From an uncultured Gammaproteobacteria bacterium (lineage in GTDB: Bacteria > Patescibacteriota > Patescibacteriia > Magasanikbacterales > GWA2-37-8): a stretch of DNA of 64,000 bases. The stretch lies in the NCBI GenBank assembly GCA_964355175.1, contig CAYHBZ010000001.1, positions 439,400-503,399 on the forward strand. The letters are read 5' to 3'. The first letter of the stretch is position 1; each line of letters begins with the position of its first letter. Position numbers and translations under genes: made by a program. The notes beneath the pieces are model-generated. The model was given only the letters and a program-made list of their open reading frames with translations. It had not been told where the DNA came from and did not search any database. Below, in pieces: positions 7,022-61,266 of this stretch.

Positions 7022-7050
7022 TATTCTATATAAGCAGGGACAAATAGTCA
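7022..7050 (-). promoter_or_regulatory. Promoter for the YefM-like gene
   Basis: Minus strand reads TTGACT-17 nt-TAGAAT. Confidence 0.45.
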
Positions 7051-7171
7051 ACTCAGAAAAATATTTTTCTTCGTACTCCTACATTCTATCTGGCTTTATC
7101 TTTTATGTCTAGATTTGTAAAACGAATTACGGCTCTTAATAAGACGAAAATAACTAAACCAAAGCCTCAGC

Positions 7172-7210
7172 AAATAAAAAATCCAAAGCTCTAGACTCTG
7201 GATTTTTTAT
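7172..7210. terminator. Bidirectional hairpin terminator
   Basis: AATCCAAAG...CTCTGGATT stem with a T-run on one side and an A-run on the other. It lies downstream of the minus-strand gene 7303-7644. Confidence 0.45.
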
Positions 7211-7302
7211 TGGCTCTGACTACAAAATTTATAATCAAAGTGTGGCGCGCCGGATCCTACTCCTTTTTAAGTTAGGGGGCGCGCGGGGTGGGAATGAAAT
7301 GC

Positions 7303-7644
7303 CTAGTGATGGGGCACCTCCTTCAGCTGCGGAGCGGCCAGTCGAGCCGTCTCGACTCGACGACGCCGGCTTGGATCGCGGACGTAGGCCGGAAGATGTT
7401 CTCCGGGACTGATCGAGCTGAACGCCGTCGGCAGTGGCTTGGGCTCGGTGTTGCGGCTGGTCGGCTGGCGCTGGCGCAAAGCAGCCCAGAACCAGGACAG
7501 CAGCTCCCCAGGTTCGGTGAACAACAGTCCGCCGACAATGGCTACCGTGCCGATCACAGGCAACAACGACTCAACGAAGTACGCCACGACGAGCAATGCC
7601 GCCGCGAGGTACTCCATGTAATCACGAAAGGTCCACTTTCGCAT
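7303..7644 (-). CDS. Small membrane protein in a GC-rich islet, two predicted TM helices plus Pro/Arg-rich tail
   Basis: 113-aa ORF with two hydrophobic helices (YLAAALLVVAYFVESLLPVI, GTVAIVGGLLF...SWFWAAL). GC is about 65% against a background of about 40%. The terminator lies downstream on the minus strand. Confidence 0.4.
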   Translation of the reverse strand: MRKWTFRDYMEYLAAALLVVAYFVESLLPVIGTVAIVGGLLFTEPGELLSWFWAALRQRQPTSRNTEPKPLPTAFSSISPGEHLPAYVRDPSRRRRVETARLAAPQLKEVPHH

Positions 7645-7750
7645 TTCTCCCCTTTGCCGGTAGGCAAGGCCGAATTTGGCCCTATACCGGACACAGCTTA
7701 ACTATCATAATTATAACAGAAAGTCAAGGGTAAAGATATAATTATTCAAT

Positions 7751-7790
7751 AAAAAAACCTCCCGAACAATCGAGAGGTTTTTTATTTTAT
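7751..7790. terminator. Terminator of the secreted-protein gene
   Basis: AACCTC...GAGGTT hairpin flanked by an A-run and a T-run. Confidence 0.5.
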
Positions 7791-7801
7791 TTACTTTATT
7801 T

Positions 7802-9550
7802 TTATGGTGTAACCAAATTTACTTTTACTTTTGCCCCACCCTTACCACTGTTACCTTGGTAAGTGAGCTCTACATACCCACCATTTTGTTTGAGCGCATA
7901 TTTTTTCTTGGCATTTACTTTGAGCACTACATTGGTGCTCTTGGCGCCATTTAATTTGAGCCAAACATAAGTGTTATTAAATTTCACTACTTGAAATTTG
8001 AAAACACTACCGTCAAATTTAAACCAGTTATTTTTACAAATAGTATAGATACCGTTGCCGCCCTGTTCATTGGTACAACTATCGCCGGTAGCATCCAGCA
8101 TAGTAGTATTGGAATCTACTTTGATCAGAGCGCGACCTTCGTCTCCTACACCCAAGTAAGTCAACATTACATATTTACCAGGTTTGTTGGTGACATAAAA
8201 AGTTTCTGGCTCATTGATCACCAGATCAGCATCATCTTCACTAAGATTGCTCAATAACACACTGGCGGTTTCACCATCATGATCCACTACTTTAACTTTT
8301 ACACCACTCCAGTAATGATCCACGGCATAGCCGGTACAAACAATGAAATTTACATTGCCGCCGGTGATATCCGAACAAGCTGGCAGAGATGAAGCGGAAT
8401 TGCCTGCGGTACTAGTAGCACTGCCGGCAGTATTAAATTTGAAGTAAGTATAATCAGACCACTGACCGGTAGAGCCGTTTGGAAAGACTGGCAACACACG
8501 AGTGCGGAATTGATTATCTCCGGCCAAAGGCGAAGTAGTGAAACTACTGGAATATGTTTTCCATTTAAAACTATCGGACCAATCGGCACCAACACCACAA
8601 TGATCACAAGCTACTTCCACCATGTAATTGTTGGCATTTTTTACTTCCAACCAATTGATAGTGGCAATACGAGGAAAATTGGTAAAAACAGAATTATTTA
8701 AAGGCGAAGTAATCGTAGTCTTGGATGACAAATCATAGCTTGAAATTGTTTCGGCTTTTTTGGCCTGACAAGCACCGGCTACACAGCCATTTTCACATTT
8801 ATACCACTGAGTATGTACATAATTTTTGCCATTGCCGGAGCTACAGTGAGTTTCGGCGATATAGTCACCGGAAGTTTTATTTTTATCGCCAATATAGGCA
8901 CCACAGCTATCACCATAAGTACCAGCAATACCGCTCACTTCATCATTACCGGTAGCAGTACCATAAACATAGTTATTGAAATTATCGCTTTCAGAACAAG
9001 TAGCGGCTGGAGCTACAGCCGGCTTGCCTTTACAAGCACCGGCCGAGCAACCATATTCACATTTATACCATTGAGTATGAACATATGGATTGGAGCTAGA
9101 ACCACTACAATATTTTTCAGCGATGAAATCGCCAGAAACTTGCCCTTGGTCACCCACATAATTTCCACAAGAATCTTGATAAGAACCAGCCACCTGACTG
9201 ACTTCATCTTTTCCGGTAGCGACACCAACAACATTATAATTCAAGCCACTTTCAGAATCACTGCAAGTAACTACCGGTGCGGCCGTACCAGTACAAGGTT
9301 TCCAATCTACGCGATATTGGGTAGCGGAAAGACAAGCCATAGTGTAATCTTTCAAACCATTACCGGCATCACGACATTCCGAAGTCAAAAAAGCGCTATA
9401 TGATCCATTCACTATCTGAATATCCTTGCCTACCTGAGTACATTTATCTACATTTACCGGATTCCAACCCACTTCCGGCAAAGCTGCTGACGCCATCTTT
9501 GGCGCCAAAGCTACCAGCAGTGCGGCCAGGAGCCAAACACTTTTTTTCAT
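7802..9550 (-). CDS. Secreted cysteine-rich protein with two tandem about 80-aa repeats
   Basis: Signal peptide MKKSVWLLAALLVALAPKMASA. Tandem repeats at aa 96-176 and 185-264 share CS(D/E)S...GDSCG...YVHTQWYKCE(N/Y)GC.AGAC. Native-like composition. Confidence 0.6.
   Translation of the reverse strand: MKKSVWLLAALLVALAPKMASAALPEVGWNPVNVDKCTQVGKDIQIVNGSYSAFLTSECRDAGNGLKDYTMACLSATQYRVDWKPCTGTAAPVVTCSDSESGLNYNVVGVATGKDEVSQVAGSYQDSCGNYVGDQGQVSGDFIAEKYCSGSSSNPYVHTQWYKCEYGCSAGACKGKPAVAPAATCSESDNFNNYVYGTATGNDEVSGIAGTYGDSCGAYIGDKNKTSGDYIAETHCSSGNGKNYVHTQWYKCENGCVAGACQAKKAETISSYDLSSKTTITSPLNNSVFTNFPRIATINWLEVKNANNYMVEVACDHCGVGADWSDSFKWKTYSSSFTTSPLAGDNQFRTRVLPVFPNGSTGQWSDYTYFKFNTAGSATSTAGNSASSLPACSDITGGNVNFIVCTGYAVDHYWSGVKVKVVDHDGETASVLLSNLSEDDADLVINEPETFYVTNKPGKYVMLTYLGVGDEGRALIKVDSNTTMLDATGDSCTNEQGGNGIYTICKNNWFKFDGSVFKFQVVKFNNTYVWLKLNGAKSTNVVLKVNAKKKYALKQNGGYVELTYQGNSGKGGAKVKVNLVTP
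8759..9265 (-). repeat. Tandem intragenic repeat, 2 x about 240 nt, encoding the Cys-rich modules
   Basis: Protein-level repeat mapped back to DNA coordinates. Confidence 0.5.
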
Positions 9551-9801: not shown

Positions 9802-10311
9802 TTACAACTCGAAACCACAAGGAAAGAAGTCGGCCATGGTACCGATGACGATCTGGCCGTTATCCTGAAGACAGAGAAAACGGATATTTCCGCCACCATA
9901 CTGGCTGAGCAGGCCGCGACAATGTCCACACGGCGTGTATCGAACGTCCGAGAGACTGACGATCGGCACCATGGTGTATTGAGGCGGACTGACAATACGC
10001 TTACTGCTCGGTCCAAGAGCGATAGCAACGGTATCGCAGAGCGCCCTGGGACCAAGAGCGCCGATCATCGCGGCCAGCGTGGCCGCTTCGGCGTGAATGG
10101 TGCTCGTCTGAGCATGATCTTCTACATTACAGCCATAGAACATGCGATCAACCCCGACAGGACGCAACGCCGCTCCCACCATGAACTGCGACACCGGCAC
10201 ACTCGCATGCTCACGCGCACGAATGGCTCGAGCCAGAAGCACACGATCAGCTTCGGACATTTCATCCCAGACACACACCCGCACACTACCTGTAATCTCA
10301 ATCGTCCGCAT
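9802..10311 (-). CDS. cdd: Cytidine deaminase (CDA-fold zinc deaminase), GC-rich
   Basis: HAE and PCGHCRGLL zinc-binding motifs. About 62% GC, but an AT-rich upstream region with TTGCAT-16-TAGTAT and a GGGAG Shine-Dalgarno. Confidence 0.7.
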   Translation of the reverse strand: MRTIEITGSVRVCVWDEMSEADRVLLARAIRAREHASVPVSQFMVGAALRPVGVDRMFYGCNVEDHAQTSTIHAEAATLAAMIGALGPRALCDTVAIALGPSSKRIVSPPQYTMVPIVSLSDVRYTPCGHCRGLLSQYGGGNIRFLCLQDNGQIVIGTMADFFPCGFEL

Positions 10312-10445
10312 TGCTATACTCCCAACCAGCCAGTTGATTGCTGATTTGCGGGCATACTAACATATATTTTAAAAAATGCAATGATTATACATTGGACAAT
10401 AAAAATCATAATTGATAGAATATGGCTATATAAATTCTAAAAAAT

Positions 10446-10775
10446 ATGGCTAAACAATATTTTGAATTAAAAAAAGATCAATATCGAAAAAATCGTGGAG
10501 GTTATTCACGCTTTCTAAATATTTTTTGTGACAGTTGTAGCGCGCATTTGGCTCTATATCAAAAAGATGGTCCAGGTGAACTAAAAAGAATGTACCTCGA
10601 CAGAATTTTGGCGCCAAAAATTAAAAAAAATAAAACTATGGACTTCAAATGCTCCGCTTGTCAAAAAGTTGTCGGAACTTTCTATAATTATAAAAAAGAA
10701 GATCGACCGGCAATCCGTTTGTACCAAGGATCGGTAATAAAAAAAGTCGGAATTGGAATTTATCCTTTAAAATAA
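10446..10775 (+). CDS. Zn-ribbon protein (CxxC...CxxC), AT-rich paralog
   Basis: 109 aa. RGGYSRFLNIFCDSCSAHLALYQKDGPGELKRMYLDRI...CSACQ. About 50% identical to the GC-rich ORF at 13157-13522. A TTGGAC-18-TAGAAT promoter lies upstream. Confidence 0.55.
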   Translation: MAKQYFELKKDQYRKNRGGYSRFLNIFCDSCSAHLALYQKDGPGELKRMYLDRILAPKIKKNKTMDFKCSACQKVVGTFYNYKKEDRPAIRLYQGSVIKKVGIGIYPLK

Positions 10776-10787
10776 ATAGCGTAAAAA

Positions 10788-10822
10788 AACAATGCCTACT
10801 GAATTGGCATTGTTTTTTATTT
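10788..10822. terminator. Bidirectional terminator
   Basis: AACAATGCC-tactgaatt-GGCATTGTT with an A-run on one side and a T-run on the other. It ends both the plus Zn-ribbon gene and the minus GC-rich operon. Confidence 0.6.
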
Positions 10823-10922
10823 TAAAGACACAATACAAATATTATGTTCTTAATACGGGGTCTGCAGATGCGGCTACAGATTATCCCCTCCCTTTTCCTT
10901 TTGTGAAATGACCGCATTCAAA

Positions 10923-11486
10923 TTAGAACGACTGGATGTAGTTGGTGAAAATCGCTTGCGCGATTCGACTGATCTGACCCTCTTGCGAGACGATCTCATA
11001 GTCGTAATCACCGACATACCCCAAAGCCCAGAAACGCTCCAGCTCCTTTTGCGCGCTAGCGAAACGCGCACCGTCGGCATCCCGACCGTCTTTTCCCAAA
11101 CGCTGACGAAGCACGTCGAGCGAAGGCGGAGAAACGTAGATCGAGAACAGTTGACCAGGGAATGCCTGCTTCATGATCGACAGTCGATCGATCGGCCAGT
11201 CCAGCACCGGGAATTTCTCGGCGGACAGAGCCGCTTCAATCGGCAACCTCGGCGTCCCGTAAAGGATTCCGCCGAAGAGTTCGTTGACCACGAGCAGTTC
11301 GCCACGTTGCGACATTGCATCCATCTGGCTACGGCTCACCGAAACCTTATTCCTCTCTCCTTCCCGAAGCGGACGAGTCATGTAGGGACAGATGTAGACG
11401 AAGCGGTCGTCGAGTTTCGACAACTCGTCGATGACAGCACTCTTGCCCACGCCCGACGGACCCAGCAACAGCATGAACCTGCTCAT
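10923..11486 (-). CDS. Guanylate kinase-like NMP kinase, GC-rich
   Basis: P-loop LLLGPSGVGKS, Gmk-like TRPLREGE, and PPSLDVLRQRL / DYDYEIV segments. The start ATG overlaps the upstream stop (TGATG). AGGAGG lies 6 nt upstream. Confidence 0.6.
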   Translation of the reverse strand: MSRFMLLLGPSGVGKSAVIDELSKLDDRFVYICPYMTRPLREGERNKVSVSRSQMDAMSQRGELLVVNELFGGILYGTPRLPIEAALSAEKFPVLDWPIDRLSIMKQAFPGQLFSIYVSPPSLDVLRQRLGKDGRDADGARFASAQKELERFWALGYVGDYDYEIVSQEGQISRIAQAIFTNYIQSF

Positions 11487-12322
11487 CACTTCCTCCTTTC
11501 CAGGTTGAGAGCTTCTTTCGTCGTGACCGTAGCCATTTGAACGGCTGTTTGCCACGACTCAGAAGCGCCTGGATAGAGCAGGCCGCGAGAAGAGTTCACG
11601 AAGACGCCGAGACCTTCCGAGTTGAGCAGTTTGCCCAGATCCTGGTAGCTTCCACCTTGAGCACCGACACCGGCGAGCAGGATCGGCATGTTGTTCGGGA
11701 TGAGCGGGCGGATATTGTTCATATCCAACCCTGCCGTCGAGGACAACACGGGGATCATGTTACCGTTGCGATTCCAACGATTCACCACCAGGTCCAGCAT
11801 GTACTGCCAGAGCATGCGACCGTCATGGAGACGGACATCCTGAACAACACCGCCGGAGATGTTGCTCGTCTTGACGAGTACAACGACAGACTTGTCTTTG
11901 AGCTCCATGAGCGGTTCGATGACATCGTCCCCCATGTAGGGGTTCACGACGACACCGTCCGCCTGGATCTCTCCAAACAGGTTGTCGATGTAGGCCGCCA
12001 TAGTGTTCTCGATATCGCCGATCTTGCAATCGACAATCACGGGAACTCCCGGCAAAGTGCGATGGACGTAGTGGACGATCTCCTTGAGTACATCATGTCC
12101 ACCGGACATGAGATCGAAGAACGCCTTCTGCGCCTTGAACGCACAGACATGTGGACCAGTAGCATCCACGGCTCCCTGCAGAAACGCCAGAACCTTTTCT
12201 TCCTTGCTCCCGGGCTGTTCCAGCACTGCGCGCGGCAGTTTGGAAAAATCCGGATCAAGGCCGGCGCACAATAGAGTGCCCTGCTCGCGCATACGCGCGA
12301 AGAGTTGCTGATTCGCAATCAT
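11486..12322 (-). CDS. Orotidine-5'-phosphate decarboxylase-like (type 2 ODCase family), GC-rich second copy
   Basis: AGLDPD and VIVDCKIGDIENT preserve the DxKxxD catalytic motif. Paralogous to native pyrF at 41352-42170. AGGAGG SD. Confidence 0.65.
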   Translation of the reverse strand: MIANQQLFARMREQGTLLCAGLDPDFSKLPRAVLEQPGSKEEKVLAFLQGAVDATGPHVCAFKAQKAFFDLMSGGHDVLKEIVHYVHRTLPGVPVIVDCKIGDIENTMAAYIDNLFGEIQADGVVVNPYMGDDVIEPLMELKDKSVVVLVKTSNISGGVVQDVRLHDGRMLWQYMLDLVVNRWNRNGNMIPVLSSTAGLDMNNIRPLIPNNMPILLAGVGAQGGSYQDLGKLLNSEGLGVFVNSSRGLLYPGASESWQTAVQMATVTTKEALNLERRK

Positions 12323-13132
12323 TTACCCCTCCTGGATGTGAAGGCCTTGATGGTTGAGGTGTTGGCCCTTGGCGGCCAAATGGCGAGCGGTATGCTCGGT
12401 GGCCGGCACGATCACCGGCACGAGCTGGTCGCTAACCTTGTAGCCGTTTTCGCCAAAGACTGTAGCCTTGTAGGGGTTGTTGGTCGCCAGATCAATAGCA
12501 CACGAAGACGGCACCTCGAAGAATTTGAGGATGCAGACGACGCCGGAGTAGGTCCGGACATCGATGACGCCACCAGGTGCCAAGAGGCTGGCCGACTCGA
12601 CCGTGTTCACCTTGAGCTGTTCTTGAAGCCAGAGGGTAGCGAGCTTGAAGGTCAAGCCCATCCCCCGGCCATCTTGACGCGGGATGTTCACGATCATACC
12701 TTCCCCGACCTCGGCGAGCGTCTGCATAGCCAGCTTGAGTTGCTGACAGCATTCGCACGTCCGATCGCCGAAGACCTGGCCGGTTTCGCATCCCGAATCG
12801 GTACGCAAAACCAACCGTTCCTTCCGCTTGAAGACGGGGTTGAGGGTATTGAGGTCGATCTCGCCCCGAAGCAGCACGGAGTATTTCTCCCACTGGTCGT
12901 CGATGGCGAAATTGTACTGCCAAAACGACCCGAACTCGGTGTTGAGAACGCCGAGACCACGACGCTCCACGAAGTAGAAACGCCTGTCTCCAGCCTCCAC
13001 GACATCGATGCGCTTCTGCACCGGCTGCATAGAGCTCTGGACGAGAGCGATGAACTTCTCAACTTCCTGAGGGGACATGCCCGACTTGGCAATGATCTTG
13101 ATCATGTCGGGCGGGGGAACGCTGATAGCCAT
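12323..13132 (-). CDS. GTP cyclohydrolase II-like protein, GC-rich, with a non-canonical residue at the ring-opening Tyr position
   Basis: LRTDSGCETGQVFGDRTCECCQQL matches RVHSECLTGD..CDCGxQL (zinc Cys). NIPRQDGRGMGL matches YHRQEGRNIGL with Tyr replaced by Ile/Pro. LATNNPYK matches LLTNNPKK. AGGAGG SD. Confidence 0.65.
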   Translation of the reverse strand: MAISVPPPDMIKIIAKSGMSPQEVEKFIALVQSSMQPVQKRIDVVEAGDRRFYFVERRGLGVLNTEFGSFWQYNFAIDDQWEKYSVLLRGEIDLNTLNPVFKRKERLVLRTDSGCETGQVFGDRTCECCQQLKLAMQTLAEVGEGMIVNIPRQDGRGMGLTFKLATLWLQEQLKVNTVESASLLAPGGVIDVRTYSGVVCILKFFEVPSSCAIDLATNNPYKATVFGENGYKVSDQLVPVIVPATEHTARHLAAKGQHLNHQGLHIQEG

Positions 13133-13156
13133 GGCTATCCTCCTGATGCTTGATGG

Positions 13157-13522
13157 TTACAGATTGGTCGGCGGGTACATCCCGTCGCTCTTCTTCTTGC
13201 CGAAGGAGCCGGGCACCATACGGAAAGCCAGACGATTTTCCGGTTCGTACACCATGGGGGTGGCGATGAGCACATTGCACTGAGGGCAGAGCAGGTTGGG
13301 CAGCGCCTTCTTGTCGAGGGCCTTGCCCTTCAACTCGGCCAAAGTCGGCGGAGCGAAGATGCGATCGACATACATGCGCAAGAGCGCGCCAGGGCCGTCC
13401 TTTTGGTAAAGGGCGACATGGGCGTGGCAAGCGCAGCAGACGATGTTGAGGAAGCGAGAATCGCCTCCACGAGCCCGCGAGTAGCTGTCCCGCTTGGCCT
13501 GAAACTTGATTGGTTCGGTCAT
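13157..13522 (-). CDS. Zn-ribbon protein, GC-rich paralog, first gene of the operon
   Basis: 121 aa. RGGDSRFLNIVCCACHAHVALYQKDGPGALLRMYVDRI...CPQC. 24 nt upstream of the GCHII-like gene. Confidence 0.5.
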   Translation of the reverse strand: MTEPIKFQAKRDSYSRARGGDSRFLNIVCCACHAHVALYQKDGPGALLRMYVDRIFAPPTLAELKGKALDKKALPNLLCPQCNVLIATPMVYEPENRLAFRMVPGSFGKKKSDGMYPPTNL

Positions 13523-15406: not shown

Positions 15407-15466
15407 ATATGCAAATATGCAAATTACTATAACATAATAAAATTCAAAAAACAAAGCTGAAAACAA

Positions 15467-15503
15467 AAGACGCCTTTTGATGAAGGCGTCTTACAATGTG
15501 CAG
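15467..15503. repeat. 37-bp direct repeat, left copy
   Basis: AAAGACGCCTTTTGATGAAGGCGTCTTACAATGTGCA matches 16607-16643 at 35 of 37 positions. Contains the hairpin GACGCCTT/AAGGCGTC. Confidence 0.6.
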
Positions 15504-15561: not shown

Positions 15562-16491
15562 CTAGATATCTTTACGTTCCAGGATATTAAACCCATCCAA
15601 CACCGCATCACACAAAAAATTTTCTAATTGGCTATTATCTTTTTTAGTTTGGGCTTTATATAAAAAAGTATAATATAATCGTTTCTGTTGTTGGTGAATA
15701 ATGGCGGGGGCAAAATTATGTCGCAATAACATTGCCGTCATAAGCAAACGACCAACGCGCCCATTACCATCGGAAAAAGGATGCACCTGTTCAAACTGTC
15801 TGTGGATATCAGCCGATAATGAAATAATATCGCTATTTGATTTTGCGGCCAAAATAACTATCTCGTCAATCAATTTTGGCACACTCATAAAATTGGCAGT
15901 GGCTAAATTTACTCCCAAAATTCTCACGCCATGCCGACGATACAATCCGGCGTCAGATTGAATACCGTTCATCAAAATACTATGTAATTTTAAAATAAAA
16001 TTTTCGTCAATCTTTTTCTTTTTGAGGACATGCTCAAATAAATAATTCAAAGCAGTCTGGTGATTTTTTGCCTCCATTTGTTCGGCCAAACTTTTGTTGG
16101 GCAAGGCCACATTATCAAAAATAATAGCCGCGGTATCCGGCTCTGTCAAGGTACTCCCCTCGATACTATTACTATGGTAGGTCAACTTTAAAATAAACTG
16201 ATCACGGATATCCGGATTATCCAAAATTTCCTTCACAATATTTTTGTGTTCAGATGACTTTTTACTTAAAAATTGTTTTTTGGCAATTAATTGGGTGGCC
16301 GGAATAATTTTTTGACCGGTCATTTCTAAAAACAATTCATCTATGGCTATCTGCATTTTTACTCTTGGTACAGATTTTTCATTCCACCAATTATTGAAGG
16401 CCACAAAAGATACCCCCAGTTTATAGGCTATTTTAGTCTGAGTAAGACCAGACATTTTCTGAATTGTTTCAAGTTTTTGCTTGATTGTCAT
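15562..16491 (-). CDS. HTH-Fic fusion protein (Fic/Doc family, N-terminal XRE-like HTH)
   Basis: Fic motif HPFSDGNGRVGRLL. Inhibitory-helix-like SNSIEG. N-terminal HTH MSGLTQTKIAYKLGVS. Confidence 0.85.
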   Translation of the reverse strand: MTIKQKLETIQKMSGLTQTKIAYKLGVSFVAFNNWWNEKSVPRVKMQIAIDELFLEMTGQKIIPATQLIAKKQFLSKKSSEHKNIVKEILDNPDIRDQFILKLTYHSNSIEGSTLTEPDTAAIIFDNVALPNKSLAEQMEAKNHQTALNYLFEHVLKKKKIDENFILKLHSILMNGIQSDAGLYRRHGVRILGVNLATANFMSVPKLIDEIVILAAKSNSDIISLSADIHRQFEQVHPFSDGNGRVGRLLMTAMLLRHNFAPAIIHQQQKRLYYTFLYKAQTKKDNSQLENFLCDAVLDGFNILERKDI

Positions 16492-16529: not shown

Positions 16530-16606
16530 ATACTCTGATTCTTTATAAAGTTATAAATAGTACGCCTGGAGTGGCAAACTCCATTTCTTCAGTTAGTTGA
16601 GATAAA

Positions 16607-16643
16607 AAAGACGCCTTTTGATGAAGGCGTCCTACATTGTGCA
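16607..16643. repeat. 37-bp direct repeat, right copy, overlapping the tRNA-Arg 3' end and its terminator
   Basis: See the left copy. The last 4 nt overlap the tRNA 3' terminus. Confidence 0.6.
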
Positions 16644-16711
16644 CTCATTAGGAGTCGAACCTAAATTTTCGGCTTCGCAGGCCAATGTCCTATCCATTGA
16701 ACGATGAGTGC
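16640..16711 (-). tRNA. tRNA-Arg (anticodon GCG)
   Basis: Manual cloverleaf. Acceptor stem GCACTCA/TGAGTGC. D-loop AATGGATA. Anticodon stem TTGGC/GCCGA with loop CTGCGAA. T-arm TTAGG-TTCGACT-CCTAA. Discriminator A. 72 nt. Confidence 0.8.
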
Positions 16712-37128: not shown

Positions 37129-37157
37129 GGCCACCCGTAATTGGGTGGCTTTTTTTA
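37129..37157 (+). terminator. pyrBI attenuator (intrinsic terminator in the leader)
   Basis: GGCCACCC-gtaatt-GGGTGGC followed by TTTTTTT, about 15 nt before the pyrB ATG. Confidence 0.55.
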
Positions 37158-37171
37158 AACAATTTAAACCT

Positions 37172-38107
37172 ATGGCCACGAACCTCACAGGCAGAGACAT
37201 CATCTCGATAAAAGAAATAGGCAAAAACGAAATCTTGGCGGTTTTAAAAAATGCCAAACAATTAAAAAAGAACCCCCAACCACAACTCCTAAAAAATAAA
37301 GTAATGGCCAGTTGTTTTTTTGAGCCTTCTACTCGCACCCGCCTTTCCTTTGAGAGTGCCATGCAACATTTGGGCGGCTCCGTAATAGGATTTGCCGATC
37401 CGGGCGTCACCTCCACTAAAAAAGGTGAGACTTTGTACGACTCTATAAAAATCATCGGACAATACGCCGATGTCGTAGCTATGCGTCACCCAATGGAAGG
37501 TGCCGCCCGCCGCGCTTCCGATGCTACCGACAAACCAATCTTGAACGGCGGCGACGGTGCCAACCAACATCCAACCCAAACTCTGCTGGATTTATTTACT
37601 ATCCAAGAATGTCAAAAAAAATTAGAGGGGTTGGATATCGCCCTAGTCGGTGATCTAAAATATGGCCGTACTACTCACTCCCTAGCTCAAGCATTGATAC
37701 ATTTTGGCGCGCACTTATATTTTGTGGCGCCCGATTCATTACAAATGCCGGAATATATTTGTGAAGAATTAAAAGAAAATAAAGTGAAATTCTCCCTGCA
37801 TTCCAAAATTGAAGAAGTAATAAACAAAGTAGACATACTATATATGACACGCATTCAAGGCGAACGTTTTGCCGATCCAATGGAATATGAAAAAATAAAA
37901 AATGTCTTTGTGCTCAATGCTAAAATGCTAGAAAAATCTCGTTCTAATATGCGGGTCTTACACCCTCTACCAAGAGTAAACGAAATTACCACTGACGTAG
38001 ACAAAACCAAACATGCCTACTATTTTGAACAAGCGGAGAATGGCTTATATGTGCGCCAGGCCCTTTTAGCGATGGTGCTCGGCAAATTAACTAATACCCT
38101 TAGATAA
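37172..38107 (+). CDS. pyrB: Aspartate carbamoyltransferase catalytic subunit
   Basis: [13 protein letters not shown] and HPLPRVNEI motifs. Start placed at MATNL after the attenuator. The track start of 37145 lies inside the hairpin. Confidence 0.85.
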
Positions 38108-38113
38108 TTTTGT

Positions 38114-38590
38114 ATGAAAAATAAAGAACAAATTCGCGCTTTCAGAGTATTTGCCATCAAAGAAGGTACTGTCATTGATCATATCCCGGCCAAACAAGCT
38201 TTAAAAATTATTCAATTTTTAAAACTATATAACAACGAAAAAATAGTTACTGCTGGCTTTAATTTTCCAAGTAAAACCCTAAAATTAAAAGATATTATCA
38301 AAATAGAAGGACGAGAATTGACAGAAGAGGAGGCCAACCAGGTGGCAATTTTGGCACCTACCGCTACCATCAATATTATTAAAAACTTTGACCTGGTGAA
38401 AAAATTCCCCGTAATGATACCCGCTCAAGTGGAAAAAATAGTTATCTGTCCAAACCCAAAATGCATTACCAATAACGAAAATATGGAAACGATTTTTTAT
38501 ACCAAAGCTCGCGGAGCCAAGGTAGACCTACAGTGTCGTTACTGCGAAAAAACTTTTTCTCAAGATGACATCAAGCAATACCGAGTTTAA
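38114..38590 (+). CDS. pyrI: Aspartate carbamoyltransferase regulatory subunit
   Basis: C-terminal zinc domain CPNPKCITN...CRYCE. Confidence 0.85.
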   Translation: MKNKEQIRAFRVFAIKEGTVIDHIPAKQALKIIQFLKLYNNEKIVTAGFNFPSKTLKLKDIIKIEGRELTEEEANQVAILAPTATINIIKNFDLVKKFPVMIPAQVEKIVICPNPKCITNNENMETIFYTKARGAKVDLQCRYCEKTFSQDDIKQYRV

Positions 38591-38599
38591 TTTCCTGAC

Positions 38600-39787
38600 A
38601 TGAAAATAAAAACTTATAACAATTTAGAAATTGAATTGGATTTGCCTCCCAACTCGGACACTACCAATCTAATAGCTTTACCTGCCCTGATTGATACCCA
38701 CGTGCATTTTCGCACGCCTGGCGCGGAATACAAAGAAAATTGGGAAAGTGGTGCCAAAGCGGCCATTGCCGGCGGCGTGACCAGCGTACTGGATATGCCC
38801 AATAATACTCCGTCTATTACTACCGAGGCAATTTTGGATGAAAAAATAAAAATAGTAGAAGCACAATTAAAAAAGGTTGGCATTCCCCTGCATCCTTATT
38901 TTTATCTTGGCGCCACCTTGGATAATTTGGAAGAAATAGAAAAATGTAAAAATAAAATAATCGGAGTAAAAATATTTATGGGCGCCAGTACCGGTAATTT
39001 ATTGGTATCAGATTACGAAACGCAAAGAAATATTTTTAAAAAATGTGCCGAGCTAAATATAGTAGTGGCTGTACATGCTGAGGATGACGATATCATCAAC
39101 GCTCAAAAAAATAAATTTCCTAGCGCCACCGTAAACGACCACGGAAAAATTCGCCCCAATATTGCGGCCCTGACTGCCGTAAAAAAAGCGATAAATTTGG
39201 CACGCGAAACTGGCGCTATTTTGTATATTCTCCATAGTAGCACTACTGAGGAAATAGCGCTGATTCGCCAAGCCAAAAAAGAAGGACTCCGGGTATTTGC
39301 CGAGGTCACTCCTCACCACCTATTTCTCACTGAGGAGGCCTATGGCACACTTGGCGCCAAAGCGCAGATGAACCCGCCTTTACGCTCCAAAGATGACCAC
39401 AAAGCCCTCTGGGAGGCCATAAAAGACGGCACCGTGGACACCGTAGGTACCGATCATGCTCCCCATACTTTACAGGAAAAAACCTTACCTTATCCACAGT
39501 CACCATCAGGTGTGCCGGGCATTGAAACCTACTTACCACTATTGCTTGACGCCTATAATGCGGGTAAAATTACTTTGGAGAAAATTGTGGAATTAACCCA
39601 TACTAATCCCCAAAAAATCTTTGATATAAAAGAAACCGGTGACCTGGTTTTGGTGGATTTAAACCAAGTGAAAAAAATAAAAAATGAAGATCTAAAAACT
39701 AAATGTGGTTGGAGTCCTTTTGCCGGCAAGGAATTAAAAGGTACGCCAAAATTTACAATTTTAAATAATATAATTTATAAAATTTAA
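38600..39787 (+). CDS. pyrC: Dihydroorotase
   Basis: LIDTHVHFRTPG metal-binding motif. Amidohydrolase fold. Confidence 0.8.
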   Translation: MKIKTYNNLEIELDLPPNSDTTNLIALPALIDTHVHFRTPGAEYKENWESGAKAAIAGGVTSVLDMPNNTPSITTEAILDEKIKIVEAQLKKVGIPLHPYFYLGATLDNLEEIEKCKNKIIGVKIFMGASTGNLLVSDYETQRNIFKKCAELNIVVAVHAEDDDIINAQKNKFPSATVNDHGKIRPNIAALTAVKKAINLARETGAILYILHSSTTEEIALIRQAKKEGLRVFAEVTPHHLFLTEEAYGTLGAKAQMNPPLRSKDDHKALWEAIKDGTVDTVGTDHAPHTLQEKTLPYPQSPSGVPGIETYLPLLLDAYNAGKITLEKIVELTHTNPQKIFDIKETGDLVLVDLNQVKKIKNEDLKTKCGWSPFAGKELKGTPKFTILNNIIYKI

Positions 39788-39790
39788 TCT

Positions 39791-40738
39791 ATGCGTCATC
39801 TCATCTCACTCAAGGAGCAAAGCAAGGAAGATATTTTGAAAATGCTCGATATGGCAATCAAATTAAAAGCTAAACGCCAAGCCAGAGAGTTGACAAATAT
39901 TTTACCAAACCAGACATTGGTAATGCTATTTCAAAAAACTTCTACTCGCACTCGCCTATCATTTGAAGCCGGCATGACAGAGCTTGGCGGTCATGGTATA
40001 TTTTTGGACAGCCGCACCTCACAGCTTTCACTCACTGATTTTGGCGATGAAATTCAAGCTATCATGCGCTTTGGACAAGTGCTAATGTTCCGCGCGCTTA
40101 AAGCCGATGATGTAATCAAAGCCGCGTCATATAATCGCGTACCGGTAATCGATGCTTGTAGCGAAAAATATCATCCAGCTCAAGCCCTGAGTGATTTGCT
40201 CACTATGGCCGAAAAATCAAACGGCATTGAAAATGTAAAAAAAATAACTTGGCTTGGTGTAGAAAATAATGTATCCAACACTCTCATGCTCGCCTGCGCC
40301 AAACTTGGTATCCAAATAGCCATCTGCGCTCCGGAAGCCAACACCCAGAGTATTGATCCGGAATTAAACGCCGTGGCCGAAGCTACCGGCATGGTGACAC
40401 GCACTACCAACCTACAGGAAGCTCTCAAAGACACCAACTATGTACATACCGACACTTGGATGGATATGGAATTTTTTGAAAATGGCCAAGTGAAACCTAG
40501 TTTCCAGGCGGAATATGATCGCCGCAAAACTACGTTTATGCCTTTTCAACTCAACGCCAATTTAATAAATATTTACTCTCCTCAAGCAAAAATAATGCAC
40601 TGTATGCCATGTCACATCGGCTATGAAATTACTCGCGACGCTATTGATCATCCAAATTCCGTAATTTATGATCAGGCCGAAAATCGTATGCATATGCAAA
40701 AGGCGATGATTCTTTGGTTACTGAACAAAGAAGTTTAA
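39791..40738 (+). CDS. Ornithine carbamoyltransferase-like enzyme with non-canonical substrate loop
   Basis: STRTRLSFE carbamoyl-phosphate site. HCMPCH matches OTC HCLP. The OTC DxxxSMG loop is replaced by TDTWMDMEF. Confidence 0.55.
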   Translation: MRHLISLKEQSKEDILKMLDMAIKLKAKRQARELTNILPNQTLVMLFQKTSTRTRLSFEAGMTELGGHGIFLDSRTSQLSLTDFGDEIQAIMRFGQVLMFRALKADDVIKAASYNRVPVIDACSEKYHPAQALSDLLTMAEKSNGIENVKKITWLGVENNVSNTLMLACAKLGIQIAICAPEANTQSIDPELNAVAEATGMVTRTTNLQEALKDTNYVHTDTWMDMEFFENGQVKPSFQAEYDRRKTTFMPFQLNANLINIYSPQAKIMHCMPCHIGYEITRDAIDHPNSVIYDQAENRMHMQKAMILWLLNKEV

Positions 40739-40750
40739 AAAAATAAATTT

Positions 40751-41350
40751 ATGATCAGAGAAGAATTGGTAAATAAACTATTTGAAATCAACGCTGTAAA
40801 ATTTGGCGAGTTCAAACTCAAAAGCGGTATCATGTCGCCAGTATATATCGACCTACGCGTAATTGTTTCCTATCCGGAAGTACTCAAAGCGGTCGGCGAA
40901 GCCATGTGGGAAAAAGTAAAAAATCTAAAATTTGATCTACTCTGTGGCGTACCATATACGGCTCTGCCAATCGCCACGGCTATCTCTCTAAAGCATAATA
41001 TTCCGATGATTATGCGCCGTAAGGAAGTAAAAGATTATGGCACTAGAAAAGCCATTGAAGGCGCTTTCACTGCCGGTCAGCAAGTATTGGTGGTGGAAGA
41101 TTTAGTCACCAGCGGCAGCAGTGTTTTTGAAACCATCGAGCCACTTGAACTCGAAGGATTAAAAATCAACGATGTCATAGTAATGCTTGATCGCGAGCAA
41201 GGCGGCAAAAAACATATCTCTGAAAAAGGAAAGAATTTGCACTCGGTAATTACTATGAGCGAGCTGGTAGATACTCTAGAAAAAAATAATAAATTGGACA
41301 CGCAAACCGTACAAAAAGTGAAAGAATTTATCCAAAACAATCAGGTCTAA
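40751..41350 (+). CDS. pyrE: Orotate phosphoribosyltransferase
   Basis: PRPP-binding VLVVEDLVTSGSS. Confidence 0.85.
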   Translation: MIREELVNKLFEINAVKFGEFKLKSGIMSPVYIDLRVIVSYPEVLKAVGEAMWEKVKNLKFDLLCGVPYTALPIATAISLKHNIPMIMRRKEVKDYGTRKAIEGAFTAGQQVLVVEDLVTSGSSVFETIEPLELEGLKINDVIVMLDREQGGKKHISEKGKNLHSVITMSELVDTLEKNNKLDTQTVQKVKEFIQNNQV

Positions 41351-41351
41351 T

Positions 41352-42170
41352 ATGATAATGGAAAAAGTAAAAAATATTATCGCCAAAAATAATTCGCTGG
41401 TCTGTGTGGGATTAGATACGGAAATTTCCAAAATTCCCGCTCATTTAAAAAATGTAGAATTTCCTCAATTTGAATTCAACAAAGCCATTATTGACGCCAT
41501 TGCCGATTTAGTATGCGCCTTTAAACCCAACACTGCCTTTTACGAAGCTCAAGGCGAGCAAGGAATACACGAACTAAAAATGACCTGCAATTATTTGAAA
41601 GAAAAATATCCAGCAGTACTTTTAATCCTCGATGCCAAACGCGCCGACATTGGGAATACCAACAACGGCTATGTAAAATTTGCTTTTGATTATTTGCAGG
41701 CCGACATGATTACTCTTCACCCCTACTTGGGACAAGAAGCACTCGCGCCATTTCTAGACCGCGCCGATAAAGGCAGTGCCATTCTGTGTCGCACTTCCAA
41801 TATTGGCGCCGGAGAATTTCAAGATCTGAGAATAAACAACAAGAGTCTATTTGAAATAGTAGCCGAAAAAGTGGTAAAACTTTGGAATACAAATAATAAT
41901 TGTTTATTGGTAATAGGAGCCACTTATCCTGAAGAAATGGAACTGATCAGATCCAAAACCGACACTATGTTTTTCTTGGTTCCAGGCATTGGCGCTCAAG
42001 GCGGCGATCTGGAAAAAACTTTATTATCCGGATTAAATTCAGAAAAAAGTGGTTTGATAATTAGTTCTTCCCGTGGCATAATTTTTGCCGACAACACCGA
42101 AAATTTTGCCATCAAAGCGCGCGAGGAAGCGCTGAAATTAAAGGATGAAATTAATAAATACAGAATCTAA
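41352..42170 (+). CDS. pyrF: Orotidine-5'-phosphate decarboxylase, type 2
   Basis: VGLD and LILDAKRADIGNT motifs. Last gene of the pyr operon. Confidence 0.85.
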   Translation: MIMEKVKNIIAKNNSLVCVGLDTEISKIPAHLKNVEFPQFEFNKAIIDAIADLVCAFKPNTAFYEAQGEQGIHELKMTCNYLKEKYPAVLLILDAKRADIGNTNNGYVKFAFDYLQADMITLHPYLGQEALAPFLDRADKGSAILCRTSNIGAGEFQDLRINNKSLFEIVAEKVVKLWNTNNNCLLVIGATYPEEMELIRSKTDTMFFLVPGIGAQGGDLEKTLLSGLNSEKSGLIISSSRGIIFADNTENFAIKAREEALKLKDEINKYRI

Positions 42171-60718: not shown

Positions 60719-60892
60719 AGTTGGAAAATTTATCTAGAGCGGTGCGAGGGATTCGGCCCGATGACCACCCAGCAACCCCCTAAACCGGGGTGCTAATTCC
60801 GACCCTATTTAGGGAAAGATTTGTCCGTTTTAAACGGAAACAGTTTGCTTGTAGTCTGTTATCTTTCTTTATTTAGATAACGGATTTTTTTG
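60719..60892 (+). ncRNA. Candidate structured ncRNA or riboswitch-like leader of about 170 nt, family not recognised
   Basis: Bounded by its own promoter and an intrinsic terminator (CTGTTATCT-ttctttattt-AGATAACGG plus T7). Internal hairpins CCCTA/TAGGG and TCCGTTT/AAACGGA. G/C-rich paired segments GGCCCGATGACCACCC...CCGGGGTGC. No ORF. Confidence 0.35.
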
Positions 60893-60990
60893 TTCTTTTC
60901 ATTGTGTTGAGTTATAGGACACACCTTTGCTTTCTTAAAAAATCAGAGGAGTGTTCTGTAGCTTCAACCGCTTATCCCGTGAGGTGCCCC

Positions 60991-61266
60991 ATGTCCCAGC
61001 CCATCTCCTTCTCCGACAGCCAAGTCACCGAGCTGGCCCGGCTGATCGTTCGCTTCATCAGCCAGAGCGAGCTCTCCACCTTCCAACGCGTGGTCAGCCG
61101 CGTCGAGTACGAGGCTCCCTGGTTTGTCTGGGTCGCTCTGGCCAATGACGGTACCGAACTGGGCCGCTCAGACGAGTTCCGCTTCGTGGCTGCCAACGTC
61201 CGGCCGGTCGTGACCGCCCAGACCGCCCGCGACATCATGAAAGGAATCGCTGATCACACGTCGTGA
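60991..61266 (+). CDS. GC-rich hypothetical protein of 91 aa
   Basis: ATG preceded by GAGGTG. About 62% GC in an AT-rich context. No family recognised. Confidence 0.4.
   Translation: MSQPISFSDSQVTELARLIVRFISQSELSTFQRVVSRVEYEAPWFVWVALANDGTELGRSDEFRFVAANVRPVVTAQTARDIMKGIADHTS

Follow-up and report, generated by a model that had tools for sequence, protein, structure and literature searches.

Why would a genome encode two homologous small zinc proteins with opposite codon usage, only about 2.4 kb apart? This question is raised by a stretch of 64,000 nucleotides from contig CAYHBZ010000001.1 (positions 439,400 to 503,399 of the forward strand, assembly GCA_964355175.1), which is referred to below as the window. 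One of the proteins, Z-A, is encoded by a stand-alone gene. The other, Z-B, is encoded by the first gene of an operon that also codes for three enzymes resembling GTP cyclohydrolase II (GCHII), orotidine 5'-monophosphate (OMP) decarboxylase (OMPdc) and guanylate kinase (Gmk). The preliminary description of this DNA had proposed a cassette-specific partner, either a regulator or a zinc-ribbon subunit, that exists in a resident and an imported version. We favor, with moderate confidence, a joint reading in which Z-A and Z-B are ancient paralogues, Z-B being part of a mobile nucleotide module that is an old GC-rich import, and Z-A being an accessory partner. The genes and the signals around Z-A are listed here (GC3 is the GC content at third codon positions).

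10393 to 10421, plus strand: promoter-like site of Z-A, TGGACA-17-TAGAAT, with TG ahead of the -10 element (predicted by consensus scan)
10446 to 10775, plus strand: Z-A (ORF A), stand-alone zinc protein of 109 aa; open reading frame (ORF) with CxxC at residues 28-31 and 69-72
10783 to 10818, unstranded: hairpin CAATGCC/GGCATTG (10790-10812) preceded by an A-run and followed by a T-run (direct reading of the sequence)
10923 to 11486, minus strand: guanylate-kinase-like P-loop kinase, 187 aa, GC3 0.67, last operon gene (Pfam Guanylate_kin, 4e-17)
11486 to 12322, minus strand: paralogue of OMP decarboxylase type 2, 278 aa, GC3 0.68 (TIGR02127, 182.7 bits against a cut-off of 110.6)
12323 to 13132, minus strand: GTP-cyclohydrolase-II-like protein, 269 aa, GC3 0.76 (Pfam GTP_cyclohydro2, 7e-20)
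13157 to 13522, minus strand: Z-B (ORF B), operon-embedded zinc protein of 121 aa; ORF, first operon gene

Two paralogous genes of opposite base composition

The two proteins had been described as about 50% identical, sharing a core motif and a second CxxC. BLASTP aligns them with 49% identity and 60% positives over 111 columns (E=1e-33), the core motif and the second CxxC occur in both, and the positions and strands given earlier for the two genes agree with the ORF list. The paralogy is real and far beyond chance. Judged by their sequences, Z-A and Z-B are true, ancient paralogues.

Base composition sets the two genes apart. The 64 other ORFs of the window provide a GC3 background of 0.386 +/- 0.078. 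Against this background, Z-A (32.4% GC, GC3 0.23) has z=-2.0, while Z-B (GC3 0.78) has z=+5.0 and the three operon enzyme genes range from z=+3.6 to +4.8. Z-B is indeed GC-rich, but at a measured 59.6% GC rather than the 62% reported before. Z-A had been placed where the GC-rich DNA ends. This does not hold, as a GC-rich cytidine-deaminase-like gene (9802-10311) adjoins its other side. Z-A is an AT-rich islet interrupting a GC-rich tract. The promoter and terminator attributed to it are plausible, given the near-consensus TGGACA-17-TAGAAT site and the hairpin with a T-run after the stop codon. The loop of this hairpin exceeds 8 nt, which puts it beyond the listing of the stem-loop scan, so that it was found by direct reading. 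Lying where the Z-A gene and the operon converge, it is a candidate for a terminator that works in both directions.

A profile of Z-A and Z-B has 625 protein matches in a large protein database, the named ones being Patescibacteria (Magasanikbacteria, Uhrbacteria, Komeilibacteria, Nomurabacteria and others). There are 605 Z cluster representatives among 1.84 billion searched. A scan of one genome per species revealed 207 Z places, among them a few with the label Chloroflexota, Chlamydiota or Woesearchaeota. As far as these matches can be assigned, the Z family is mainly one of Patescibacteria (Candidate Phyla Radiation, CPR), with some members in archaeal-type contexts. No covering family for Z-A or Z-B was found in Pfam, NCBIfam, PADLOC or PHROGs, and a literature search returned no paper on this module or on the Z protein family. 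Some Z members are annotated at the source as ribosomal protein eS27. We rejected this assignment, as the best match (E=0.073) covers only a zinc-knuckle stretch of 25 residues. A defence or phage origin was also rejected: there is no PADLOC match above noise, and the only PHROGs match is that of the kinase (guanylate kinase). Among 2.9 million viral contigs scanned, there is one distant Z relative, and the operon is absent.

Across 66 diverse Z members, 20 alignment columns are invariant, and all 20 are kept in Z-A and in Z-B. These are the four cysteines (C28, C31, C69, C72) together with D11, R17, Y38, Q39, K40, D41, G42, G44, R48, Y50, D52, R53, Y82, E85, R87 and K99. Polar invariants are unusually many for a protein of about 110 residues. 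The two CxxC pairs are predicted to form a zinc site.

The Z domain also occurs in other architectures (P0287; P0241; P0296, P0318, P0348, P0351, P0378, P0386; L085, 9809-10297). These include an NTPase_1 domain (THEP1-like) followed by a SWIM-like motif and Z, a Z domain with a long helical-repeat tail, and a sub-family marked by the motif RCYLDRIH and an N-terminal region that is hydrophobic or of low complexity; one of its members is encoded on a 65-kb viral contig.

The four-part module and the role of Z-B

The operon is organized in the order Z-B, GCHII-like, OMPdc-like and Gmk-like, all on the minus strand. Between the stop codon of Z-B and the ATG of the GCHII-like gene there are 24 nt, which contain AGGAGG. 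The GCHII stop codon directly abuts the start of the OMPdc-like gene (TAA/ATG), and the OMPdc stop overlaps with the Gmk start (TGATG). Because of this overlap, the start of the Gmk-like gene is assigned to 11486 and not to the upstream GTG. The operon is thus tightly coupled, and Z-B comes first in it. The gene order, with Z-B first, is kept in every operon locus surveyed. An analysis of co-occurrence with GCHII-like genes had been suggested, and in every operon locus surveyed Z-B precedes the GCHII-like gene. When genes within 6 kb of Z genes were clustered (80 loci), the three operon enzymes were the only recurrent partners.

Gene fusions link the same four parts. In P0282, P0284, P0302 and P0314, a Gmk-like enzyme carries a C-terminal Z domain, and in P0289 Z is fused to the GCHII-like enzyme. 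OMPdc and Gmk are fused in L031, L037, L040 and L058. In L087 (GCA_027335715.1, 4362-7041), the whole module consists of two genes, coding for GCHII-OMPdc (544 aa) and Gmk-Z (346 aa). This module resides on a 529-kb contig, has SecY and a family-B DNA polymerase as neighbours and is AT-richer than these; the context is probably archaeal. The pairwise fusions form a closed ring (Z-GCHII, GCHII-OMPdc, OMPdc-Gmk, Gmk-Z), which shows that the four parts, always found travelling together, are a functional unit. The four proteins presumably assemble into a physical complex. The fused Z domains most closely resemble the operon-embedded copies. Of the two options that had been left open for this partner, the fusions to kinase and cyclohydrolase favor the zinc-ribbon subunit over the regulator. 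They point to Z-B as an integral protein component of a mobile four-part enzyme module, rather than a DNA-binding regulator.

How the operon may be controlled is a related question. Two features are conserved in its upstream region.

13625 to 13620 and 13605 to 13597, minus strand: operon promoter, -35 TTGCTT, 17 nt, TG-n and -10 TAGTCT (by conservation)
13590 to 13569, minus strand: 22-nt box GGTTCTTTGATAATGAATGATT, just downstream of the -10 element (by conservation; candidate operator)

Promoter and box are kept in seven genomes (the window, L001, L004, L008, L012, L014 and L015), the operon proteins being about 60-85% identical to those of the window. Within the window the box occurs just once, the number of chance matches expected being 0. 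An RNA element in the operon leader was considered and rejected, as the alignment of the seven leaders folds with only -0.75 kcal/mol and without covariation, and Rfam found nothing. Because the leader shows no RNA structure, we prefer to see the box as acting at the DNA level. It is a candidate operator, through which some protein may regulate the operon. This protein might be Z-A, Z-B or both, acting on the promoter region as zinc-ribbon DNA-binders. The conservation of promoter and box in seven genomes, the weak dyad of the box, the unstructured leader, and a Z-A gene with its own promoter and terminator would all fit such transcription regulators. We nevertheless consider this quite unlikely. 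Pfam and NCBIfam detect no DNA-binding domain in Z-A or Z-B, and the relatives by fold (see below) bind small molecules, proteins or RNA ends. Fusion to a kinase and a cyclohydrolase would be unusual for a repressor. The box, moreover, is found only upstream of Z-B and nowhere near Z-A, and it is confined to the sub-clade of operons to which the window belongs. A role of Z-B as a component of the enzyme module accounts better for the fusions.

The enzymes themselves are divergent paralogues of well-known families. The GCHII-like protein has an N-terminal extension of about 60 aa. When aligned to RibA2 (4i14), its zinc cysteines (C-x10-C-x-C) and the QDGRGMGL motif match. It stays below the NCBIfam cut-offs for RibA (94.7 against 148 for the subfamily model, 73.4 against 205.85 for the ribA model). 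The 120 best of its 433 relatives that carry a source name are from metagenome-assembled genomes of Patescibacteria/CPR. The GCHII-like protein encoded in L032 (3713-4936) is divergent; it has 408 aa, of which about 180 form an N-terminal extension. In the OMPdc-like protein, the D-x-K-x-x-D motif (VDCKIGD) aligns to DAKRGD of 3qw3, so that the catalytic motif is intact. The Gmk-like protein is below every NCBIfam equivalog cut-off (77 bits against 160.45). Two further features of the window are relevant in this context.

9802 to 10311, minus strand: cytidine-deaminase-like gene, 169 aa, 56% GC (Pfam dCMP_cyt_deam_1, 7e-11)
37145 to 42170: native pyr operon (pyrB-I-C-E-F) with host-like GC (sequence reading and NCBIfam)

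The pyr operon contains pyrB-like, pyrI-like and pyrC-like genes, a second transcarbamylase gene, a pyrE-like gene and pyrF (41352-42170; TIGR02127 score 231). Because the genome has its own pyrF in this operon, the OMPdc-like gene of the module is a second, divergent copy. The cytidine-deaminase-like protein is below the NCBIfam cut-offs. Among the 84 loci compared, its gene occurs only in the window and in L007. It is an optional neighbour and no conserved part of the module.

Fold of the zinc proteins and possible chemistry

Known proteins with the beta-tent fold consist of two four-stranded antiparallel beta-meanders packed at approximately a right angle, with zinc bound at the apex via two CxxC motifs; a hairpin after strand 2 forms one wall of the ligand cradle, and strands 5-7 form its floor (PMC4287342). 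For Z, an AlphaFold (AF2) model was built on the family alignment, and residues were placed on it by secondary structure. The model is all-beta and has a predicted confidence (pLDDT) of 88. Both CxxC motifs are at hairpin turns. Two short strands (48-50 and 54-56) follow right after strand 34-41 and form an inserted hairpin (48-56), onto which the invariant residues R48, Y50, D52 and R53 fall. Overall, the invariant residues are placed at the end of strand 2, on this hairpin and on strands 5-7.

Database searches with Z lead to the same fold at a distance. The top Foldseek matches of the model are YPEL5, cereblon and Mis18, with TM scores of 0.4-0.48 and E-values that are not significant. The closest folds, all distant, are of the beta-tent type (MsrB, Mis18/Yippee, cereblon CULT and the RIG-I C-terminal domain). 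A profile search of the PDB returned only matches with E>=0.07. In Pfam, Z-A has sub-threshold matches to the RIG-I C-terminal domain, Yippee-Mis18, the At4g08330 beta-tent family and STEEP1, and to no others; these reach 13.6-19.4 bits, below the gathering thresholds of 25.6-27. Z-B has no Pfam match at all.

We compared Z to MsrB, Yippee/Mis18, cereblon CULT, the C-terminal domains of RIG-I/MDA5/LGP2, GFA and Mss4 (PMC4287342). Z resembles these proteins in being a small (about 110 residues) all-beta protein with two CxxC motifs at hairpin turns and a hairpin after strand 2. In addition, its conserved residues are concentrated on the inserted hairpin and the last three strands, which make up the ligand cradle of the known members. 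Z differs from them in that it has no significant sequence match to any member family, and the signature YQKDGPG..R.Y.DR is unique to the Z family. Judged from the model, Z is likely a new family of the beta-tent fold, distant from the others, whose conserved ligand site is at the canonical position. We know of no beta-tent protein whose gene accompanies, or is fused to, one for GTP cyclohydrolase II or a guanylate-kinase-like enzyme. A precedent for the Z-A/Z-B pair is provided by Mis18 alpha and beta, which are described as paralogous yippee-type domains that assemble with each other (PMC4818781).

The enzyme families suggest that the decarboxylase makes or trims a nucleoside monophosphate, that the kinase phosphorylates it, and that the cyclohydrolase opens the ring with loss of pyrophosphate. 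Three known systems may serve for orientation. One lead for the chemistry of the module is that a guanine nucleotide is opened in RibA-like fashion and then acted on by a deaminase of the cytidine deaminase (CDA) fold. What recalls the riboflavin route are the zinc cysteines and loop motifs of the GCHII-like protein and, in the window, a nearby gene for a CDA-fold deaminase. Unlike RibA, the GCHII-like protein is below every cut-off for this family and has an N-terminal extension of 60 residues. None of the neighbourhoods surveyed contains ribB, ribH, ribE or reductase genes. What accompanies the GCHII-like protein is an OMPdc paralogue and a kinase, and the deaminase is restricted to two of the 84 loci, as described above. 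URC1, from the URC pathway of pyrimidine degradation in Lachancea kluyveri, is also a GCHII homologue, and URC1-like opening of a uracil nucleotide is another lead. The likeness would consist in a GCHII-family enzyme that serves pyrimidine nucleotide metabolism and not riboflavin synthesis. A route from OMP via UMP and UDP/UTP to ring opening would use the three module enzymes as well as the cytidine deaminase. There are, however, no URC4, URC6 or urea amidolyase genes near the module. LysW-type carriers, finally, are small zinc ribbons with two CxxC motifs that are encoded in metabolic operons and act as a protein partner of the enzymes, not as a regulator. Z-B is likewise a small protein with two CxxC motifs encoded within a metabolic operon. 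The individual steps of the URC pathway are themselves uncharacterised (PMC7530994).

We propose that the invariant polar residues of Z, located in the beta-tent cradle, bind a nucleotide substrate or its phosphates. Alternatively, Z might dock onto the kinase and the cyclohydrolase, or bridge the enzymes. The monophosphate that is made or processed by decarboxylase and kinase would thereby reach the ring-opening cyclohydrolase. Z-A most likely binds the same ligand or partner as Z-B and has an accessory or modulating role, possibly in a Z-A/Z-B heteromer like that of Mis18 alpha and beta.

It is tempting to go further and to see in Z the nucleotide-binding or catalytic heart of a new pathway that transforms a nucleotide ring and joins Z to the OMPdc paralogue, the kinase and a GCHII-like ring opener. 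Such a pathway would be largely restricted to ultra-small symbiotic Patescibacteria and related archaea, carried by mobile islands, and tuned or redirected by Z-A. This is a tentative idea and we would not call it probable. If true, Z would be a new functional class within the beta-tent fold; a nucleotide-binding or catalytic Z would imply a new pathway in organisms with minimal metabolism and a new role for this fold. Both Patescibacteria and the archaea that correspond to them rely on their hosts to supply nucleotides, and for most proteins specific to these lineages no function has been assigned. The module is a compact, recurrent and testable unit, in which three nucleotide enzymes that are divergent paralogues are linked by fusions to a strongly conserved, unannotated zinc protein. 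What is new here is the Z family, the proposed role of Z within a known fold, and the combination of known enzyme families.

Stand-alone copies, mobile islands and the history of the module

A Z-A-like gene (referred to as A-like) is adjacent to the module in 17 of the 18 informative operon loci, in four arrangements. It is in tandem upstream in L004, L008, L012, L015, L059 and L016, and in tandem downstream in L001, L051, L064 and L079. It is convergent downstream in the window and in L014, L031, L037, L040 and L058. In L032, A-like and B-like genes form a tandem, 1 nt apart, opposite to the enzyme genes. Z-A is strongly linked to the module. In four other loci (L023, L024, L053 and L072), a single Z gene is divergent to a GCHII gene located farther away, and genes for the decarboxylase and the kinase are missing. 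The retention of all invariant residues in Z-A makes it probable that its ligand or partner is of the same kind as that of Z-B. In our reading, Z-A is the separately transcribed member of a broader stand-alone clade.

Two close relatives, L014 and L007, have flanking genes in common with the window (82-98% amino-acid identity). L014 has Z-A and the operon; it lacks the ABC-transporter and Fic genes, and the deaminase gene is replaced by two GC-rich ORFs (7046-8137; 170 and 149 aa, 57-60% GC). In L007, the GC-rich deaminase gene and Z-A are directly followed by the Fic gene, and the operon is absent at the syntenic site. The GC-rich ORFs beside Z-A in L014 and L007, as well as the GC-rich segment 7200-7700, have no Pfam match. 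Z-A is thus the constant element of a variable region, a few kb from the genes for tRNA-Arg and tRNA-Val, and both of its sides hold interchangeable GC-rich cargo.

The synonymous divergence (dS) between the window and L014 is 0.57-0.92 for the operon and 0.16-1.5 for the flanking genes. As the operon is within the range of the flanks, it was already present in the common ancestor of the window and L014. GC3 of A-like genes tracks that of the host (slope 0.69, r 0.78, n=71, mean deficit 0.077), whereas GC3 of the module does not (slope 0.10, r 0.09, n=15). The module is richer than the host by 0.31-0.39 for the window, L014 and L004; for L079 and L008 it is poorer by 0.13-0.20. Synonymous third-position changes in the window and L014 were polarised by two agreeing outgroups. 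There were 43 changes from GC to AT and 14 from AT to GC, an excess that parsimony with saturated outgroups may inflate. This indicates a module that is decaying toward host composition and is not maintained GC-rich. Selection for GC-richness of the operon (GC3 0.63-0.78 across saturated dS) was considered and found less likely, given this excess. It is further weakened by modules that, elsewhere, are AT-poorer or AT-richer than their hosts. The data support the module as an old import from a GC-richer donor, next to a host-like Z-A. The import predates the split from the nearest relative. The locus may serve as a natural example of a resident gene beside a mobile module that carries its paralogue, with an import that is dated by synonymous divergence and a composition that decays.

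The contrast between resident and imported copies thus stands with respect to composition and is backed by the operon-less site in L007. What fails is the view of Z-A and Z-B as two versions of one gene, as does the view of a recent transfer. If Z-B were the donor genome's copy of the Z-A gene, brought in recently and redundant, opposite codon usage in homologous genes about 2.4 kb apart would be expected. However, orthologues of Z-A from other Patescibacteria are 65-88% identical to it, and Z-B only 49%. Both types are encoded in the 17 of 18 informative loci, across distant lineages, and in a neighbour-joining tree the operon-embedded and enzyme-fused copies separate, with weak support, from the broad A-like group. 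The dS values of the operon equal those of the flanks, which speaks against a recent transfer. Such a xenologue pair is already contradicted by these data and is extremely improbable. The main rival to our joint reading is of another kind. The A-like gene may be the landing place of mobile islands, reached through site-specific or homologous recombination, and have no functional tie to the module. In L039 (9989-18404), two gene-sized A-like copies with 93% DNA identity flank 8 kb, which encode a large serine recombinase, a primase-like protein and radical-SAM-like proteins. In L037 (47-9011), two gene-sized A-like direct duplicates, which are 98% identical, flank 8.3 kb that include the module and an inositol-1-phosphate-synthase-like gene. 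Recombinase genes directly follow Z in L019 and L009 and the operon in L067. Because of these duplicates and recombinase neighbours, we consider Z genes to be carried or targeted by mobile islands. Cargo in the window clade varies, with a CDA-like gene or two GC-rich ORFs to the left of Z-A and the operon or nothing to the right, and the composition of the module is decoupled from that of the host. On the other hand, the landing site would then have to be, by coincidence, a paralogue of the first gene of the module. In the window, the operon has neither Z-derived repeats nor a recombinase at its sides, and the A-B tandem of L032, with its spacing of 1 nt, resembles co-expression. A landing place explains the position of Z-A, not the retention of all invariants in both paralogues. 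We regard this explanation as possible though not probable; it can also be compatible with a functional link between Z-A and the module.

For the reading of Z-A as an accessory partner of a module containing Z-B, several points count as evidence to the contrary. Fusions show functional linkage, not mechanism. An A-like gene is present and the module absent in 28 loci with full 10-kb flanks, and the archaeal-type two-gene module has no A-like neighbour. For these two reasons, Z-A is not obligatory for the module, and it may have another role. Its adjacency could reflect the place of island integration rather than a shared function. The split between operon-embedded or enzyme-fused copies and A-like copies is recovered with all data, with a bootstrap of 42/100. 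The possible inflation of the excess of GC to AT changes also belongs here.

Three other features of the window were observed. A segment of about 450 bp with 60% GC (within 7170-7800) has no Pfam or Rfam match. In L014 and L007, its ends (approximately 7171-7250 and 7642-7792) have counterparts with 80-86% identity, but the GC-rich core cannot be aligned. The segment might represent a cassette that varies, or an RNA not recognised so far. The gene for a Fic-domain protein (15562-16491) is flanked by a 38-nt direct repeat (15465-15502 and 16606-16643, 95% identical), which contains a hairpin; the second copy abuts the 3' end of the tRNA-Arg gene (16639-16711). These repeats have the appearance of a scar that a small insertion left beside a tRNA gene. 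Finally, an S-adenosylmethionine (SAM) riboswitch (60727-60825, plus strand) precedes an ORF of 120 aa (60904-61266), which is a GC-rich outlier (GC3 0.74, z=+4.5).

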